A stretch of DNA of 64,000 nucleotides from a virus. Shown in pieces: positions 12,457 to 19,475 of this stretch (position 1 is its first letter; the number at the start of each line of letters is the position of its first letter). The position numbers and the translations under genes are program-made. The notes below the pieces were generated by a model. That model made no database searches. It saw nothing but the letters and a program-made list of their open reading frames with translations, and had not been told where the DNA came from. The stretch lies in UHGV virus genome UHGV-0129253, one strand, 5' to 3'.

Positions 12457-12500
12457 AACAATTTGTTTTCTGCCTTATCTGATTTGTGAAAATGATTTCA
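12457..12500 (+). promoter_or_regulatory. Early-type promoter module (AACAATTTGTTTTCTGCC...TGTGAAAAT)
   Basis: Third copy of the module seen at 1082 and 8004. Confidence 0.35.
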
Positions 12501-12527
12501 CTGAAGCAACTTAATAAGGAAACCATC

Positions 12528-12902
12528 ATGGGACTTGATATCTATATCGAGACACAGCCTAAAAACGATCTGAATAACGAGGCATCCAGAAAGCAGGTTG
12601 CTTACTTCCGTAAGTTCAATGCGCTCGTTGGGTGGATGGAGCGCAACGTAGGTGAAGTCGAAAATTGTGAGCTTTTAGAATTAACGATGAATGACATTTG
12701 TTTTCTGAAGGCTCATTTGATGCACATAAACGAAAGCAATTGCGAAGAGTACTTGCCTACCCGGGAAGGTTTTTTCTTCGGCAGTCAGGAGTACGATGAA
12801 GGTTACTGGCATGACGTGGACAAGCTGAAAAAACTTGTGGAAGACCTGATCAGGAACCACGACTTTCACAATAACAGACTGACCTTCTGCGCCTGGTGGT
12901 AA
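12528..12902 (+). CDS. Hypothetical protein
   Basis: ATG 12528 with AAGGA upstream. Confidence 0.5.
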   Translation: MGLDIYIETQPKNDLNNEASRKQVAYFRKFNALVGWMERNVGEVENCELLELTMNDICFLKAHLMHINESNCEEYLPTREGFFFGSQEYDEGYWHDVDKLKKLVEDLIRNHDFHNNRLTFCAWW

Positions 12903-12904
12903 AT

Positions 12905-13036
12905 ATGGGCGATTTCAAGAAACGCCTGAAGGAAAGAGCCGAGATGGTCAGAAAGCAAAACGCCTCTTCTGTCATCAGATACGCAAGGCAGTTTAGTCGC
13001 AACAACAAATCAGTTGAGGAAAAGATCCTTAGCGTA
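12905..13036 (+). CDS. Small ORF (43 aa, basic), translationally coupled
   Basis: ATG 3 nt after upstream stop; below the track threshold; frame checked codon by codon. Confidence 0.3.
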
Positions 13037-13203
13037 ATCGGGCGATAATTATTAAGGCCACCAGCATTGGTGGTCTTAAATGACTTTTAATAACCGAAGG
13101 TTAGTTTGAAACCTGGCTATCAACTTCCAGAACCTTTCTTGTGTATTCAGCCTGTATTAACTTCTTTTATGCCTTATCTACACTGCGATAATTACACCAA
13201 CAA

Positions 13204-13220
13204 GAAAACAACATGTTTAC
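13204..13220. promoter_or_regulatory. Early-type palindrome GAAAACAACATGTTTAC after GATAAT
   Basis: Module shared with 10670 and 13670. Confidence 0.35.
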
Positions 13221-13237
13221 GCAGTGAGGATATGCTC

Positions 13238-13519
13238 ATGACTGATTTCACCATTACCCCTAAAGCACAAAATGTATTCCTTGAATCATGGCTGGACTTG
13301 CCGGAAACAGAACAGCAAGAAATGGATCATGTGGATTATGACGAGCAGGTAAGCACGCGATTCTTCCACTTTGAGGGATGCGTTTACGACATTGCCGACT
13401 TCATGCGAGATGACCGCTTCCCTGAATGGCACGCAAGCTATCCACTAAACGCCTTTGCCATGCTGATGATCCGTGTGGGTGATTCAGGGGATACCATCGA
13501 CATCGGTCTGCTCCACTAA
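13238..13519 (+). CDS. Hypothetical protein
   Basis: ATG 13238 with GTGAGGAT ~9 nt upstream. Confidence 0.45.
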   Translation: MTDFTITPKAQNVFLESWLDLPETEQQEMDHVDYDEQVSTRFFHFEGCVYDIADFMRDDRFPEWHASYPLNAFAMLMIRVGDSGDTIDIGLLH

Positions 13520-13564
13520 AGACTAAGGCCACCAATGCTGGTGGCCTTAAATGACCATCCTGTT

Positions 13565-13648
13565 TCCCGCAGGCTAAAAACACCAACCTCTTACCTCCAG
13601 GCAACCGACAAACCCACCTGTTCCCGTCCGGCTACCGCAACTTTCCAC
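13565..13648 (+). repeat. Direct repeats CAGGC(T/A)A..CGACAAACCCACCT (3 copies), second locus of the 9551 family
   Basis: Read directly. Confidence 0.4.
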
Positions 13649-13688
13649 TTTGACGCCTTATTCGTACAACGATAATTAACACCAACAA

Positions 13689-13703
13689 GAAAACAATTTG
13701 TTA
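13689..13703. promoter_or_regulatory. Early-type palindrome GAAAACAATTTGTTA after GATAAT
   Basis: ~20 nt upstream of ATG 13724. Confidence 0.35.
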
Positions 13704-13723
13704 TTTACGATAAGGAATTAATC

Positions 13724-14206
13724 ATGAATTTTATCGCTACTGTAAACGCACCCGCACATGGCAATATCGCTGTAACGTTCTCTGACATTGAAAAACGAGT
13801 ACTTGGTGCATGGCGCGACAATGAGACGGTAGAACTGTCAGCACAAGAAAAATGCATTATTGCACGCGACATCATTGGCAATCGTCGTTACTCGCGGGTA
13901 TTTGAGAAAGCGTATGTGGTAAATTCTGGGTTCGGAACGTTCGTCTTTCCGGTGCGCTCCGGGCGATTCTGCCAGTCCAAGCTGATTGAGTTCGCTACGC
14001 AGATTTCTGTCTGGATTAAAACTCAATCGTCGTTCAAATTTTCCGACGATGAAGCAGTATCGCAGGGGATGCGGATCGCCAACAATGCAATTAAATGCAA
14101 AAACATTACGTATACCGCTGGCGTTGACACATGGAAACTGTTTTGCGCTAACTTTATGCTGAATGTATACGCAAGCAACCGCATCCACATCCTTGATGGC
14201 GTGTAA
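13724..14206 (+). CDS. Hypothetical protein
   Basis: 160-aa ORF, AAGGA RBS. Confidence 0.55.
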   Translation: MNFIATVNAPAHGNIAVTFSDIEKRVLGAWRDNETVELSAQEKCIIARDIIGNRRYSRVFEKAYVVNSGFGTFVFPVRSGRFCQSKLIEFATQISVWIKTQSSFKFSDDEAVSQGMRIANNAIKCKNITYTAGVDTWKLFCANFMLNVYASNRIHILDGV

Positions 14207-14208
14207 CT

Positions 14209-14237
14209 GAGAAGAGGGCCAGAAACGGCCCTTTCTC
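14209..14237 (+). terminator. Long hairpin GAGAAGAGGGCC-AGAAAC-GGCCCTTTCTC after ORF 13724-14206
   Basis: ~11-bp stem; loop carries the iteron core GAAACGGCC. Confidence 0.4.
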
Positions 14238-14259
14238 TATAGCCACCAGCTGCCGCAGG

Positions 14260-14340
14260 GAAATTTTCAGAAACGGCGAGGAACGCATTCATGAGCCGAC
14301 GGGAAACGGCCAGGATTTTTTCGGGAAACGGCTGCATTCG
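14260..14340 (+). repeat. Second iteron array: 3 copies of (C)GGGAAACGGC
   Basis: Copies at 14268, 14300, 14322; same core as 10220-10360. Confidence 0.45.
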
Positions 14341-14742
14341 CCTTTATGTAGAAAAAAACATCGGGAAGCTGGTGGAATCCAACCAGCGGTTGTCGGACAG
14401 GCGAGCGGGGAAAATTATGATGACTTTCGTCGCCTGAGACATCCAGATTTCTTTCGTAGCGTAATCACATACGTGATTAAGTGGTGTGATTATGTGAAAA
14501 ATCACGCGCACATAATACGCGAGCGGATACGGAACAAAACAAAATGCCGATCCGCGCCGACAATTAAACGCGGATCATAAAGCAAGACTAAAAGCCAATG
14601 ATTAACCACACACCATAGCGCAATATAACGCGTTTTAAGCGCGTTAATGTGTTGAGTAATGGGTATGTACTGGTAAGGATATAAAAGCTCGTCTGTGGCG
14701 TTATTTTGGCGCTTATTTTATGTTGTTGGAGTGAGTCAAAGA

Positions 14743-14772
14743 CAATAAAAAACGCGCCATCATTGGCGCGTT
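14743..14772 (-). terminator. Minus-strand terminator (AACGCGCCATCATTGGCGCGTT, T-run on minus strand)
   Basis: Perfect 8-bp stem; A-run on plus strand. Confidence 0.55.
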
Positions 14773-14793
14773 ATGGTGGAAGTATTAGAAACG

Positions 14794-14816
14794 AAAAAAG
14801 CGCCCATAGTGGGCGC
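14794..14816 (-). terminator. Minus-strand terminator GCGCCCATAGTGGGCGC, copy 1
   Basis: Overlaps the stop of gene 14823-15053. Confidence 0.55.
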
Positions 14817-14822
14817 TTGATT

Positions 14823-15053
14823 TTATTTGTGCAAACTGATTTTAAATCCCATTTCTACAAACGCTTTTAGCATTAAAAATATATCAGCGTCATTCACGTC
14901 TGCTTTTTTCCGCTCCTGGTCGTTCAATAAGTCAATTTTTCGCGTTGTTTCATCGATAAACTCGACTGAGCGCCCAGCGTAACCAGCGATCCCAGCGATG
15001 CGATTAACAAAATAATCATTGCGCACGTTAACGCCAGCGATAAGAATAAACAT
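14823..15053 (-). CDS. Small hypothetical protein, paralog A (76 aa)
   Basis: Paralogous to 15096-15323; AAGGAG RBS. Confidence 0.55.
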   Translation of the reverse strand: MFILIAGVNVRNDYFVNRIAGIAGYAGRSVEFIDETTRKIDLLNDQERKKADVNDADIFLMLKAFVEMGFKISLHK

Positions 15054-15066
15054 GATTAAGCTCCTT

Positions 15067-15087
15067 AAAAGCGCCCATAGTGGGCGC
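15067..15087 (-). terminator. Intergenic hairpin GCGCCCATAGTGGGCGC, copy 2
   Basis: Identical stem-loop between the paralogs. Confidence 0.5.
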
Positions 15088-15095
15088 TATTGTTT

Positions 15096-15323
15096 TTATT
15101 TTTCTAAGTGAATATTAAAGCCAGCGTTTAAAAATTCTTGAAGCATTAAAGTTACATCAGCTTCATGTATTCCTGCGCGCGCTCTATGTTCTACGTCATT
15201 GATGTTTATTTTAAACGTTGTTTCGTCAACCACTTCAGAACTTAGAGCATACCCAGCTAAACCAGCAATATCATAAACAAGAGTATGATTGTTGATATTT
15301 ACGCCAGAGATGAAAATAACCAT
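15096..15323 (-). CDS. Small hypothetical protein, paralog B (75 aa)
   Basis: Tandem duplicate of 14823-15053. Confidence 0.55.
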   Translation of the reverse strand: MVIFISGVNINNHTLVYDIAGLAGYALSSEVVDETTFKININDVEHRARAGIHEADVTLMLQEFLNAGFNIHLEK

Positions 15324-15337
15324 GATTAAGCTCCTTT

Positions 15338-15357
15338 AAAGCGCCCATAGTGGGCGC
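15338..15357 (-). terminator. Intergenic hairpin GCGCCCATAGTGGGCGC, copy 3
   Basis: Identical stem-loop. Confidence 0.5.
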
Positions 15358-15370
15358 AAGATTCCATTAA

Positions 15371-16021
15371 TTACGCTTTAAAAGCATCAGCCAGATAGTT
15401 ATAGAAATCATTTTTAACGAAGCGATATTGCTGAGTGCCAGCTTTCGCGCTCCCAGCTCCTTTGACTTTTTCAACAAGTCCGAGACGTTCGCAAAGATTG
15501 ATCAACTGGTTGGCTTGAGTATAGCCAGCGTCCAATTTAATCTCGCACGCTTTTTTGGCTTCATTCATTAAATCGAAAACAGCGCCATTCGTGAACGTGT
15601 CGATCTCGTCGTTAATCATATCGATTAAAGCGAATACACGAGATCCAGACATATCAGCGACGGAATAAGTGCATTTGCCAGATTTAATTGATTTAACCAG
15701 ATAAACCAGTTTTTCCAGAGAATAACTATTAGTCATTGCATCACGGAAAAAAACTTCTGGCGTTTGTTTGCTTGCTTTGATCGCATAGTAGAAAACAGAG
15801 CACAATTTTTCGTCTTCTACAGCGTTTACAACGTTGTTGATGAAGTAAGCAAGTTTAGTGGTTGCAGCTTGCATATTTGCTTTGTCTGCTTTTGTGTGCG
15901 TACCATTTTTATAATGTTCGTTATATGTTTGAGTTGCCAGATCTGCTTTTTCGCGCAGCTCGTCGGATACAATGGCAGCAGCTTCAACGATGGATTTTTT
16001 AGAAATGATAATGTTAGCCAT
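15371..16021 (-). CDS. Hypothetical protein (216 aa)
   Basis: ORF with AT-rich promoter region upstream (16022-16300). Confidence 0.55.
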   Translation of the reverse strand: MANIIISKKSIVEAAAIVSDELREKADLATQTYNEHYKNGTHTKADKANMQAATTKLAYFINNVVNAVEDEKLCSVFYYAIKASKQTPEVFFRDAMTNSYSLEKLVYLVKSIKSGKCTYSVADMSGSRVFALIDMINDEIDTFTNGAVFDLMNEAKKACEIKLDAGYTQANQLINLCERLGLVEKVKGAGSAKAGTQQYRFVKNDFYNYLADAFKA

Positions 16022-16260
16022 GATAATTTTTCCTTATGTAAATTTAAAATTTATTGTCGTTAGCGTCTTCGCTTTCGACGAGTTCAATTATCGATATGCG
16101 AAAAAAGATTGCAAGTGTTTTTTTAAAATTTTTTGCAGGGATGAAAGTCCTAGAAATAAAAGCGAGATCGTCGAAGGTGTTCCCTAAATAAATAATCGAT
16201 TCCGGCTTTCGACCTTATATATTTAGGTTATTTGATTTGTAGATATAAAGAAGTGATGTG

Positions 16261-16290
16261 AAAAATAATAACCGGACTTAGCCGGTTATT
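16261..16290 (-). terminator. Minus-strand terminator (ATAACCGGACTTAGCCGGTTAT + T-run)
   Basis: 8-bp stem plus T-run on minus strand. Confidence 0.6.
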
Positions 16291-16302
16291 AACCTTATAG
16301 AT

Positions 16303-16611
16303 TTATTGAACAGACTCTACAGCCTTACGATTGGTGTCAAATAGCGCATCAACGAACTGTGCCGATGACTCGCTAGATTCGCAATCCAACATTGCCCGTT
16401 CTTCATTTGCCACTTTCTTACACAGTTCCACACTCTCACCTATCGCTTTTCCTGCTTTTACGGCTGCCGAAAATTGATACATACAAACTGATACATTCTG
16501 AGACGTTGAGCACACGTCATTCATCAGCGACTGAATGACAGGCTTATAGTCCATTGCATTTGCCGCAACTGAGCAAAGTAAAAATAATGGTGGTAACAAT
16601 ATCGATTTCAT
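16303..16611 (-). CDS. Secreted Cys-rich small protein (signal peptide, 6 Cys)
   Basis: N-terminal MKSILLPPLFLLCSVAANA hydrophobic leader. Confidence 0.55.
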   Translation of the reverse strand: MKSILLPPLFLLCSVAANAMDYKPVIQSLMNDVCSTSQNVSVCMYQFSAAVKAGKAIGESVELCKKVANEERAMLDCESSESSAQFVDALFDTNRKAVESVQ

Positions 16612-16614
16612 AAC

Positions 16615-17139
16615 TCAAAAAGGCAAAATTCGTTCAACCCAATCGAACAAAACAACTATTTTTCTACCGTTCTCGACACGTAGTGTAACCTGACAAGCAT
16701 CTGCGCCTGCTGACACCCCCTCAATTTCACGGCCATCCGCCATGTACACCCTTATAGATTTGTTTGCTTTGTAGGCTTGGTTGCAAATTGCAAAAAAATC
16801 GCGGCGTGATGGCCGATTATCGACATAATCAGGGTGAACTGTTAGTCGACCTTTGAAATCGTGAGCGATACTGTCAACCACACCTGATTCAATTGTACTA
16901 ATGCGTTCAAGTGGGAGCCTTATACGATTTTCTTTGTCAAAAGGGGCTGGGCAAAGGTCAACTTTGTTACGAGATGGCATGAGGCCATAAACGTACATGC
17001 AAAACGCCTGGCCATCTTCGAGAGTGACCCTTACAGGAATTTGTTCTCTGCGCCAGAACATCAGTAGTTTTTCAACGTTAGTGTAATCTCGCGGCCAGAG
17101 TTCAGCTTGGATACCGTAGGTAATATCTTTGGTTGTCAT
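16615..17139 (-). CDS. Hypothetical protein; start uncertain (alternative ATG at 17217 would overlap the upstream gene by 74 nt)
   Basis: ORF 16615-17217; internal ATG at 17139 lies 4 nt after the lipoprotein stop. Confidence 0.4.
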   Translation of the reverse strand: MTTKDITYGIQAELWPRDYTNVEKLLMFWRREQIPVRVTLEDGQAFCMYVYGLMPSRNKVDLCPAPFDKENRIRLPLERISTIESGVVDSIAHDFKGRLTVHPDYVDNRPSRRDFFAICNQAYKANKSIRVYMADGREIEGVSAGADACQVTLRVENGRKIVVLFDWVERILPF

Positions 17140-17143
17140 GTCA

Positions 17144-17566
17144 TCACAGAGTTGTTGGCAGAATGTCGATGTCACCAGAATTGCTGGTGAACACCCTGAA
17201 CGCTTTTGTGTCTCCATTCTTCAGAGTCGTTTCTCGCTCTTGACGAGCGGGGTTTAGAGCACATAAACCTGCACCTTCAAGAGATGCACCCACAATTAAT
17301 TCTCCGGCATTTAAATGGAAAGTCGCTTTTTCGCCTGTAGCCAGTTTTGCGACAGTTTCGCCATTGATGAAAATGGAAGCATCACATCCAGCTCCTACAA
17401 AACCTGCGTCTCTCATTACCACCAACGTAGCTGGCGCTGCGCTTTGATACTTGAACACTTTGGCCTGCGGTGCTGGTTTGGCGTCATGGATTGATATTGG
17501 ACGTGATTGGCACGCGGTAAGCATCAACACTGGTAACGTTAGTAGAGGGAGAAGCGAGTATTTCAT
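17144..17566 (-). CDS. Putative lipoprotein (lipobox LTAC); candidate superinfection-exclusion factor
   Basis: MKYSLLPLLTLPVLMLTAC signal/lipobox read directly. Confidence 0.5.
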   Translation of the reverse strand: MKYSLLPLLTLPVLMLTACQSRPISIHDAKPAPQAKVFKYQSAAPATLVVMRDAGFVGAGCDASIFINGETVAKLATGEKATFHLNAGELIVGASLEGAGLCALNPARQERETTLKNGDTKAFRVFTSNSGDIDILPTTL

Positions 17567-17634
17567 GTTAGTTTTAGAACAGAAAGTGAACAGTATGGGA
17601 GACTTCATCTTTGTCTCCCTAATTGATAGCGTGA

Positions 17635-17913
17635 TTATTTTAATCTGCTTAATAGCGTTTCGAGATCTTCCTTTGTCATATTAGAGTTCTCATAGATACG
17701 CATGATTTTCTCACGAGTCTTAGCGGAAGCCCCGACAGAAGATATAACCTTGTCAAAGTCGGCCATTGTCAATTGTTCCAGAATGGTATTTATGACTTCA
17801 GCCTTAGACATTTTGATATTTTTTTCTTTTAGTTTCACTTGAAACTTTCCAAGTTTGTCATTGGCCTTATCAGACAATGCTACCTGACAGTAAGTTGTTT
17901 TCTTTTCACTCAT
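17635..17913 (-). CDS. Hypothetical protein (92 aa)
   Basis: ORF immediately downstream of the helicase. Confidence 0.5.
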   Translation of the reverse strand: MSEKKTTYCQVALSDKANDKLGKFQVKLKEKNIKMSKAEVINTILEQLTMADFDKVISSVGASAKTREKIMRIYENSNMTKEDLETLLSRLK

Positions 17914-17915
17914 AA

Positions 17916-19475
17916 CTAATCTCGTTTCAGAACTCCAAAATCGAATGCTCCATCAATAGGCAATACACCTTCTGCAAAGCCAGGTGTGGTGTCGATGATG
18001 TGTTTTCGCTCATAAGAGTGAGACAACAGGTATTTGTTGCTAATGTCAATGAAATCAGTGATAAAACACACGTTTGCCTGATTTTTTTTGGCTCGTAAGC
18101 CACGACCGACACGCTGTCTCATTTCAACTTCTGCTTTCCCACCACCAGCAAGAATGACCGCACCAACGCTTGGCACATCAACACCAACATCCAGAATAGT
18201 CGAGCCTATTAAAACATCTATTTCACCAGACGCTAAACTATTCAGCTTTGCTTGCCTTGTCGTCTGGTTAGATTCCCCATAGATGAAATCAACTTTAAGA
18301 CCTGACTCCTTCATCATCTCCATCAGGATTTGCCCGTGGCGTTTAAGACGAACCAGAGTCATGCAGTTGAGTGAATGTTGCTTATAAAGCAATGCCTCGC
18401 GCACTATGGCCTCGTTACGTCCCAAATTATACACGATCCCCAACTGATAAGCCTTTTGGTAGGCGGTGCTCATACCAACTCTAAAATTGAGGTGTTTGTT
18501 GGCAAGTTCGGCCTTGATTCTGGTCTCGTCTGGCTTGTAGGCAACTTTATGATAAAGGAAGTACGGCTTTGCCAGAATGCCTCGATCAATCAGGTACTTT
18601 TCTGTGACTTTAATTTCAATTCGCCCGGCCACCGCCATCAGGCGCATGTTGGCTTCCGTCGAATCCTTCATGAACGGCGTGGCTGTAAGCGCCAGACGAT
18701 AGTCTGCGTTCACACATAATCTGGCGATGTCATAGAAATTTGAGCCTGAAGACTCATGCGCCTCTTCCAGAATAAGAAGAGAGACACTTGAAAGGAAGCG
18801 TTTCACCAACTCCCGACGTTTGAGGTGGTAGCTTTTCTTATCTGGTGTTGCATCGCGTGGTGGTTCTTCGAGGAAACTTGCAAGAGTTTGAACTGTAGCG
18901 ACGTTGATATGTCGTGATACCTGGAACTCACCCGAGCCAATGACTCCAACCTTTTGGTCTTTTAACCACGGTTCGCCATTTTCGGCGCGGTAGTCGATGG
19001 ATCTCTGGAAGTTTTCGGCCATTTGAAACATCAGAACAGAGCGGGTTGTTAAAAATAATGTCATTCGACCGATACGTGCAGCTGCTTTGCAGGCAACGTT
19101 AGATTTCCCGCCACCAGTAGCGATCTGCGCAATCATCATTCCCTCTCGAACCAGTGTTTCCACAGTCTGATCCTGATACGCATAATCAGGATTGTATGGG
19201 AATGGGTTAACCGCCGGATTTGGTTTACCAAGCGCCGGGGCTTTGTCTTTGCGGATATGAACACATTTGATGCCCGCCTTGTTCAAGTTCGCCGCTACAG
19301 GCTTGGCAAAGCCAGCAGGGAACGAGTTTTTACTCCAGTTGAACATCGTGCTTGTGCCCTTCCAGTCGCCAGTCTCGACTTCGTAGCTCAACATTTGCTG
19401 CACCAGTTGCTTTACCTTGTCATCTGCGCCAGAAATAAGCGCATTTACTGCGTTAGATACAATCCGAACAGTCAT
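17916..19475 (-). CDS. SF2 DEAD/DEAH-box helicase
   Basis: Motif I ATGGGKS, motif II ILEEAH, motif III LTATP, motif VI QRVGRGLR. Confidence 0.8.
   Translation of the reverse strand: MTVRIVSNAVNALISGADDKVKQLVQQMLSYEVETGDWKGTSTMFNWSKNSFPAGFAKPVAANLNKAGIKCVHIRKDKAPALGKPNPAVNPFPYNPDYAYQDQTVETLVREGMMIAQIATGGGKSNVACKAAARIGRMTLFLTTRSVLMFQMAENFQRSIDYRAENGEPWLKDQKVGVIGSGEFQVSRHINVATVQTLASFLEEPPRDATPDKKSYHLKRRELVKRFLSSVSLLILEEAHESSGSNFYDIARLCVNADYRLALTATPFMKDSTEANMRLMAVAGRIEIKVTEKYLIDRGILAKPYFLYHKVAYKPDETRIKAELANKHLNFRVGMSTAYQKAYQLGIVYNLGRNEAIVREALLYKQHSLNCMTLVRLKRHGQILMEMMKESGLKVDFIYGESNQTTRQAKLNSLASGEIDVLIGSTILDVGVDVPSVGAVILAGGGKAEVEMRQRVGRGLRAKKNQANVCFITDFIDISNKYLLSHSYERKHIIDTTPGFAEGVLPIDGAFDFGVLKRD

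Follow-up and report, generated by a model that had tools for sequence, protein, structure and literature searches.

A repeated 17-nt hairpin at the joints of a variable cassette slot in SSU5/pHCM2/pMT1-type phage-plasmids

Among the systems described so far, the promoter-early stem-loop (PeSL) linkers of T4-type phages (Arbiol et al., 2010, PMC2839356; Comeau et al., 2014, PMC4122927) come closest to the element that I discuss here, a 17-nt hairpin present in three identical copies in the virus genome UHGV-0129253, of which a stretch of 64,000 nt (hereafter the window) was analyzed. PeSL linkers are conserved intergenic stem-loops of the terminator or attenuator type that lie directly upstream of the Shine-Dalgarno (SD) sequence and start of a small open reading frame (ORF) of unknown function, and the repeat itself includes the stem-loop, the SD and the beginning of the downstream ORF; between the repeats lie cassettes of unknown function, which close relatives have gained, lost or exchanged for others, and homologous recombination from repeat to repeat has been proposed for these phages, which have recombination genes of their own (PMC2839356). 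Each of these traits has a counterpart in the window, where the terminator or attenuator character of the hairpin is a putative one. However, the element described here contains no sigma-70-like promoter, leaves ~20 nt between stem and ATG and needs read-through, its conserved core measures 17 nt (up to ~37 nt) compared with ~100 bp, and it occupies one slot per genome in a temperate phage-plasmid, unlike PeSLs, which are spread in many copies over several hyperplastic regions and give excised mini-circles. By analogy, it appears to work like a PeSL while standing outside the PeSL family, and I will argue that it is probably a leaky terminator or RNA 3'-end hairpin that doubles as a short homology joint, at which homologous recombination stacks, removes and exchanges promoter-less cassettes.

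Two further comparisons help to place the element. It resembles intrinsic terminators and intercistronic attenuator or stabilizer hairpins in having a GC-rich stem of 7-9 bp, a 3-nt loop, a U-tract, a position just past a stop codon and a tandem arrangement at the end of an operon; but ordinary terminators drift in sequence and acquire compensatory changes, whereas this stem is identical to the letter across E. coli, Yersinia, Cronobacter and a Klebsiella lineage whose neighboring protein has no more than 48% identity, and it recurs at the cassette joints. Similarly, the linkers and morons of lambdoid phages combine short conserved sequences at module boundaries, where mosaic joints cluster, with small accessory genes on a conserved backbone (from the discussion in PMC2839356 and general background), yet a moron comes with a promoter and a terminator of its own and does not owe its mobility to its flanks, whereas the cassettes considered here are promoter-less and their flank is the shared joint. 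The basic nature of the locus, terminator-like hairpins between small accessory genes, is ordinary, and it is the comparative picture that sets it apart.

The exact 17-mer GCGCCCATAGTGGGCGC (given for the plus strand) occurs at positions 14800-14816, 15071-15087 and 15341-15357, which is three copies compared with 0.11 expected from dinucleotide shuffles of the 64 kb, a count reached in none of 100 shuffles, and this stem is the sole repeated one among 23 perfect GC-rich hairpins in the window; also in the whole SSU5 genome (103 kb), the hairpin is found at this locus only. On the minus strand, which is the coding strand, the 17-mer reads GCGCCCA-CUA-UGGGCGC and folds in all three copies into a GC-rich stem of 7-9 bp with a 3-nt loop, with predicted energies of -13.2 and -14.2 kcal/mol for 51-nt windows containing the two internal copies and -12.0 to -14.5 kcal/mol for the bare stems, and an Rfam search of positions 12500-18000 (E up to 1) gave only chance matches below threshold. 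Following the minus strand through 14745-16021, one meets a 216-aa ORF (15371..16021; phrog_1513, of unknown function and the conserved anchor of the locus), hairpin 1 (15341..15357, 14 nt past the stop of the 216-aa gene and followed by UUU), the cassette gene A75 (75 aa, 15096..15323), hairpin 2 (15071..15087, 8 nt past the A75 stop and followed by UUUU), the cassette gene A76 (76 aa, 14823..15053), hairpin 3, and a terminator hairpin of different sequence. Both cassette genes match phrog_1585 and are paralogs (47% identity, E=3e-22), and the initial annotation, which had reported three identical 17-nt hairpins after three consecutive minus-strand genes, two of them paralogous, is borne out. 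It had also placed an AAGGAG ribosome-binding site immediately after each hairpin, and this is true of the first two: hairpin 1 is followed by TTT-AAAGGAG-CTTAATC-ATG (15321..15340, minus strand, with AAGGAG at 15336-15331, a 7-nt spacer and the A75 ATG at 15323-15321) and hairpin 2 by TTTT-AAGGAG-CTTAATC-ATG (15051..15070, minus strand, with AAGGAG at 15066-15061 and the A76 ATG at 15053-15051), so that in these internal copies the stem ends 3-4 nt before AAGGAG. The third, terminal copy (14794..14818 with its T6, minus strand) is followed instead by T6 and then the second terminator, and its stem reaches 9 bp through A-U pairs, giving it the canonical shape of an intrinsic terminator. The stop codons of A75 and A76 lie 8 and 6 nt from the 17-mer core and 7 and 4 nt from the A-U-extended stems. 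When the paralogs are aligned with their flanks, the repeat proves longer than 17 nt: a 37-nt block consisting of the hairpin, the T-run and AAGGAGCTTAATCATG is identical at 36/37 positions between the two internal copies, whereas the coding parts of the two repeat units, which have a period of 270/271 nt, are ~60% identical at the DNA level.

This region of the window is 81-97% identical to Escherichia phage Cyrano, phage SSU5 and hundreds of non-mobilizable IncFIB 'plasmids' (~100-115 kb), and the window is a phage-plasmid of the SSU5/pHCM2/pMT1 type, a group in which the phage part is conserved and the accessory repertoire variable. The 216-aa protein is encoded on 815 PLSDB plasmids from Klebsiella, Escherichia, Enterobacter, Yersinia (pMT1, including Y. 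pestis), Salmonella, Citrobacter and Cronobacter. A scan of IMG/VR for the exact 17-mer returned 104 loci, ~94 of them this locus and ~10 on unrelated contigs, a number close to what I estimate for a collection of that size; I attribute these ~10 matches, which lie mostly in GC-rich sequence and lack T-runs, to chance or convergence. Since such a scan selects for the hairpin, it matters that a second sample was drawn by the 216-aa protein and is hence unbiased in this respect: it holds 81 loci, 80 of which extend past the stop of the gene, and the exact 17-mer lies 15-25 nt past that stop in 68, while 11 differ in the loop only and one has a single stem mismatch. The pooled and de-duplicated set comprises 97 distinct regions with 186 hairpins (184 with a perfect stem and 2 near-misses), and here the columns of the stem are conserved at 99-100% compared with 30-80% for the abutting non-coding positions. 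The stem is unchanged in the Klebsiella lineage with the 48%-identical 216-aa protein, and unchanged beside an A75 gene that has diverged from the A75 of the window by 0.585 synonymous substitutions per site; farther away, in Pectobacterium, where the 216-aa homolog is 39% identical, an ordinary, unrelated terminator stands in place of the hairpin. Two contigs labeled otherwise, L110 (JAEWTL010000044.1, 'MAG: Bacillota bacterium') and P0201 ('Finegoldia magna'), encode an enterobacterial 216-aa protein (84-89% identity) together with the hairpin and an A76 cassette, and are probably mis-binned or contaminating phage-plasmid DNA. As a separate observation, in two of the unrelated IMG/VR contigs (L012 and L088) the 17-mer sits directly after a TATAAT box and directly before an SD, 19 nt downstream of a similar palindrome, CTGCCCATAGTGGGCAG, an operator-like layout in an unrelated phage.

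What changes among the relatives is the content between the 216-aa gene and the terminal hairpin. Across the 97 regions I count at least 10 architectures of this slot, its joints marked by hairpins: it can be empty (one hairpin) or hold a single family-A gene of the A75 or A76 type (phrog_1585), a single B gene (67 aa, helical, phrog_6145; SSU5_119) or its distant homolog C (36% identity), combinations (A75+A76, B+A76, B+A75, or C plus an empty hairpin unit), or two or three 'empty' hairpin units in tandem at a spacing of 44-48 nt. The arrangement of the window, A75+A76, accounts for 3 of the 97 regions (the slot of the window was de-duplicated into these, and was one of 4 such loci in a first tally), and relatives with a 216-aa protein at least 96% identical may have A76, A75+A76, B+A76 or B+A75 in the same place. 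A given upstream flank may lead into different modules downstream, a given module may likewise follow different flanks, and the hairpin marks the junction. Other lineages have either A75 or A76 by itself, Y. pestis pMT1 for instance having A75. Furthermore, a chimeric allele combines a start of ~11 codons of the A75 type (MVIFISGVNINN) with a body of the A76 type in Klebsiella phage vB_KpnS_p4727 (L004, 1632-1859) and in P0034, P0037, P0042 and P0052, and this is direct evidence of recombination between the A75 and A76 lineages; taken together with a B+A junction that lacks the hairpin, to which I return below, it indicates that crossovers can fall anywhere in the shared block and not at one fixed site. 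Because the paralogs are old (47% amino acid identity), because each is found alone or with an unrelated cassette in close relatives (216-aa protein at least 96% identical), and because the chimera exists, the most plausible origin of the pair in the window is unequal recombination at the hairpin-SD block, which would have stacked two old alleles, and not a recent local duplication. The initial annotation had proposed cassette-wise duplication, and it is the cassette-like organization that stands, while stacking or exchange of pre-existing cassettes fits better than duplication. In the 48%-identity Klebsiella lineage (L192, 3140-3270; L062, 1498-1602; L028, 8081-8141), the slot consists of tandem 44-nt 'empty' units only, each made of the hairpin, T5-6 and ~21 nt; as many as three follow one another, and there is also a degenerate copy that is short of one stem base. 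Such units may be what was left after cassettes were lost, or may form an array of several terminators.

The T-run that follows the hairpin varies with its place in the slot. Among the relatives, all 78 copies with an SD and ATG downstream have a leading T-run of 1-4, and 101 of the 106 copies without a downstream SD have T5-7; the window fits this division, with T6 after the terminal copy and T3 and T4, directly abutting the SD, after the internal ones, so that only the terminal copy would have the complete structure of an intrinsic terminator. Behind the terminal copy lies the second terminator (14745..14772, with its stem-loop at 14751-14772, minus strand), which as RNA would read AACGCGCCA-AUGA-UGGCGCGUU followed by T6 and as DNA reads AACGCGCCA-ATGA-TGGCGCGTT-T6 (14772-14745). 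A d'Aubenton-Carafa-type score, indicative only, comes to about -4 and -3 for the internal copies of the window, compared with +19 for hairpin 3 and +22 for the second terminator. No promoter-like site was found on the coding strand between 14800 and 15370, and no promoter adjoins any hairpin copy; upstream of the 216-aa gene there are two candidates of the sigma-70 type on the minus strand (TTGCAA-16-GATAAT, 16114..16087, and TTTAAA-17-TATCAT, 16048..16020), which are consensus matches only, as shuffled sequence gives as many, and these are presumed to be the only promoters of the unit, the operon upstream ending in a terminator-like hairpin of its own (16291..16266, minus strand). Without an internal promoter, the cassettes must be transcribed by read-through, and since the cassette ORFs are under purifying selection (dN/dS, the ratio of nonsynonymous to synonymous rates, is 0.16-0.31; the genes match phrog_1585 or phrog_6145), they are presumably expressed. 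The suggestion made from the window alone, that the hairpins are partial terminators or RNA-stability elements, therefore agrees with their anatomy as predicted, with internal T3-4 running into the SD, a terminal T6 backed by a second terminator, and no promoter in between.

These observations can be joined into one account. The hairpin would have begun as a stem-loop of the intrinsic-terminator type, placed 3'-terminally in the transcription unit of the 216-aa gene, and have become the joint of a variable slot. The transcript would end at the last copy, with its stem and U6, and the second terminator would back it up; at the internal copies, the SD of the next cassette would cut the U-tract down to 1-4 U, leaving leaky terminators or attenuators that may serve also as protective 3'-end hairpins and, after processing, as 5'-end ones. 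Expression would then be highest for the 216-aa gene, lower for cassette 1 and lowest for cassette 2, the cassettes being reached by read-through. A ribosome terminating at the nearby A75 or A76 stop would cover the 5' arm of the hairpin, and termination should be weakened further when translation of the upstream ORF is under way. At the DNA level, the hairpin, the T-run, the SD and the first codons would offer 20-60 nt of shared sequence for homologous recombination, by which cassettes could be stacked, deleted, swapped or made chimeric, either between copies in one genome or between co-resident phage-plasmids that supply RecA-like and exonuclease functions themselves (the genes of SSU5 include those for a RecA-like recombinase and for exonuclease subunits), and A75+A76 with three hairpins would be one rare product of such recombination. 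That the contents of the slot are exchanged is seen in the comparison of relatives, and the mechanism proposed for it is one that I infer from sequence.

The loop adds a second kind of record. It is CTA in 148 copies and TAG in 20, with ATA, TTA, TAA, CAA, TTG, TCA, TGA and others making up 12 variants, and several of these are reverse-complement pairs (CTA/TAG, TTA/TAA, CAA/TTG, TCA/TGA); in several lineages the loop is flipped within otherwise identical flanks. Inversion of the loop by template switching at a perfect hairpin is a known signature (PMC8794818), and the flips carry this signature, so that the locus is a clean natural record of such mutation; the frequent flips show that the palindrome also takes part in template-switch or cruciform-type events. 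Also, copies within one genome can have a derived loop in common, TCA/TGA in L141, L192 and pMB7868_2, which indicates concerted evolution. The second terminator, which is single-copy, has an invariant stem, AACGCGCCA-N4-TGGCGCGTT, and the loop pairs TTGT/ACAA, TCAT/ATGA and TTGA/TCAA among relatives; because its loop flips too, loop inversion is a mutation to which perfect hairpins of these replicons are generally prone.

Several points speak against a leaky terminator that doubles as a joint, and they deserve to be set out together. Its RNA-level part (termination, read-through, stabilization) is deduced from sequence features. The stem shows no compensatory changes over the divergence covered, which is more than pairing alone requires and which a sequence-specific ligand would explain equally well; invariant 7-bp half-sites around a free 3-bp center are the footprint expected of a dimeric DNA-binding protein, and the 216-aa neighbor is modeled with a winged-helix-like domain. 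The single-copy second terminator has the same invariant stem and flipping loop, and this pattern of conservation is thus not specific to recombination joints. B+A arrays no longer have the internal hairpin and read TAA-T7-AAGGAG at that junction, from which it follows that the hairpin is not needed for expression of the downstream cassette. Finally, the d'Aubenton-Carafa-type score given above was run with modern energy parameters and is indicative only.

The main alternative, which I regard as unlikely but worth keeping in mind, is one in which the 7-3-7 palindrome is a duplex DNA site, an operator or roadblock, for a dimeric protein (the 216-aa protein being the candidate) that gates transcription of the cassettes, and the look of a hairpin with a T-run is secondary. 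The half-sites GCGCCCA/TGGGCGC are invariant and their centers 10 bp apart, which suits the operator of a dimeric helix-turn-helix protein, although in geometry only. An operator, however, needs no T-run, yet nearly all copies have one on the coding strand and its length tracks position; the sites lie at the 3' ends of genes and not at promoters; the winged-helix matches are non-significant and the domain is a generic one; the second terminator, unrelated and unrepeated, is conserved in the same way; and the 39%-identical homolog in Pectobacterium is followed by an ordinary, unrelated terminator. Ordinary tandem duplication of a gene with its terminator, the identical hairpins being passive copies, would account for two paralogs, a period of 270/271 nt and identical junction blocks, and I consider it quite improbable, given that the coding parts have fallen to ~60% DNA identity against 36/37 in the junction block, that either paralog is found alone in other lineages including Y. 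pestis pMT1, and that the hairpin also bounds the unrelated B/C family and empty arrays.

A hairpin so close to an SD could also be an RNA operator, through which a post-transcriptional regulator would control translation or decay of the cassette mRNA, and the FljA-like, Hfq-like protein encoded two genes upstream would be the candidate: FljA represses translation by binding mRNA, a gene of its family (PF03614, E=2.5e-84) is syntenic with the locus and the stem ends 3-4 nt from AAGGAG. Even so, I find this very doubtful. In RNA operators of the boxB or coat-protein type the loop is conserved and is the usual determinant of specificity for proteins that bind RNA hairpins, while here it has 12 variants and flips; the SD is not sequestered in the predicted fold, no SD follows the terminal and 'empty' copies, the B+A junction works without a hairpin, and nothing links FljA-like proteins to the sequence of the hairpin, the literature on RNA targets of FljA having yielded nothing usable. 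Little credence should be given, either, to the idea that the palindrome, as a duplex or as an extruded cruciform, is the recognition site of a phage-plasmid protein such as the 216-aa one that promotes capture, stacking and exchange of cassettes; if it were true, this would be an integron-like platform for gene capture without a tyrosine integrase, common to pHCM2, pMT1 and hundreds of Enterobacterales phage-plasmids.

The least credible of these explanations, and to my mind a highly improbable one, is that the hairpins are sites of a dedicated site-specific or hairpin-specific recombination enzyme, integron attC-like or HUH/RAYT-like (RAYT, REP-associated tyrosine transposase), that captures and excises cassettes, for although promoter-less ORFs in the same orientation, each ended by a 3' palindrome, behind one promoter, with a likely positional gradient and with number and content varying among relatives, do recall integron arrays, and although extrusion of the palindrome, or its copying as a hairpin, is evident from the flipped loops, neither an integrase, HUH or intI gene nor an attI site is annotated within ~9 kb of the locus in phage Cyrano or in the SSU5 gene lists retrieved, the crossover points vary (the chimeric ORF, the one junction without a hairpin) and are not site-specific, and there is one hairpin locus per genome. 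A perfect palindrome of 17 nt is also unlike attC sites (57-141 nt, imperfect, with R''/L''-L'/R' boxes and extrahelical bases) and unlike repetitive extragenic palindromic (REP) sequences and bacterial interspersed mosaic elements (BIMEs), which are imperfect, ~35 nt long, intergenic, present in many copies genome-wide and associated with a RAYT, compared with a single locus per phage-plasmid here. An RNase III site (stem too short), a centromere or parS (sites inside an operon, in 1-3 copies) and a telomere or packaging site (wrong size and place) were ruled out.

Returning to the slot at which promoter-less cassettes are probably stacked and exchanged, its protein products give few clues. 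Family A has 32 representative clusters in a library of 50%-identity representatives of 1.8 billion proteins, so that homologs of the paralogs do exist elsewhere, as the match to phrog_1585 and the signs of purifying selection already suggested and contrary to what would have spoken against the initial annotation. An AlphaFold2 model of A76 (mean predicted local distance difference test, pLDDT, 75) has a small ferredoxin-like fold (beta-alpha-beta-beta-alpha-alpha-beta) without a significant match in the PDB, and so generic a fold gave no function; the model of the 216-aa protein has an N-terminal helical bundle and a C-terminal winged-helix-like domain, the latter from a weak and statistically non-significant match. 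Pfam and PADLOC gave no match for the 75/76-aa, 216-aa, 102-aa or 160-aa proteins. Cassette protein B (L005, 2623-2826, SSU5_119; phrog_6145) carries the label 'MIT family metal ion transporter CorA', as does the PHROG itself; a helical protein that looks soluble and has 67 aa is very unlikely to be CorA, and a misannotation has probably been propagated.

Around the slot, synteny is kept among relatives in the order FljA-like regulator (PF03614), small ORF, 216-aa gene, hairpin(s) with cassettes, ~600 nt of non-coding sequence and a convergent 160-aa gene (phrog_1641). The small ORF between the FljA-like and 216-aa genes encodes 102 aa in the window and its close relatives, and other small ORFs take its place in some lineages. 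The FljA-family gene itself ('repressor of phase-1 flagellin'; 16615-17217, minus strand), which lies upstream of the locus in all relatives and also gives a weak Hfq-like match, may allow the phage-plasmid to silence the flagellin of its host. In the ~600-nt spacer between the terminators and the convergent gene, the motif GCCGTTTC[C/T][C/G] occurs four times within 113 nt (14220-14332, minus strand), with 5 copies of the GCCGTTTC motif in the whole window compared with 0.6 expected; it is kept in SSU5 and in Klebsiella relatives (L005, L004, L192, L191), including the 48% lineage, with one copy in Pectobacterium plasmid Drgb1, and it looks like an iteron-type protein-binding array. Elsewhere, two near-identical 28-nt hairpins, TTAAGGCCACCAGCATTGGTGG(C/T)CTTA(G/A), stand inverted at 13052-13079 (plus strand) and 13523-13550 (minus strand) and bracket an ORF (13106..13519), and this may be another hairpin-bounded module.

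The locus shows, at nucleotide resolution, one origin of accessory variation in phage-plasmids that are widespread and clinically common, and with it the PeSL idea, known from lytic T4-type phages, reaches temperate phage-plasmids, here without a promoter. The locus is also a compact natural system in which truncation of the U-tract would tune the leakiness of a terminator. Furthermore, phrog_1585 and phrog_6145 emerge as accessory families of fast turnover, with possible roles in host takeover, exclusion or anti-defense.

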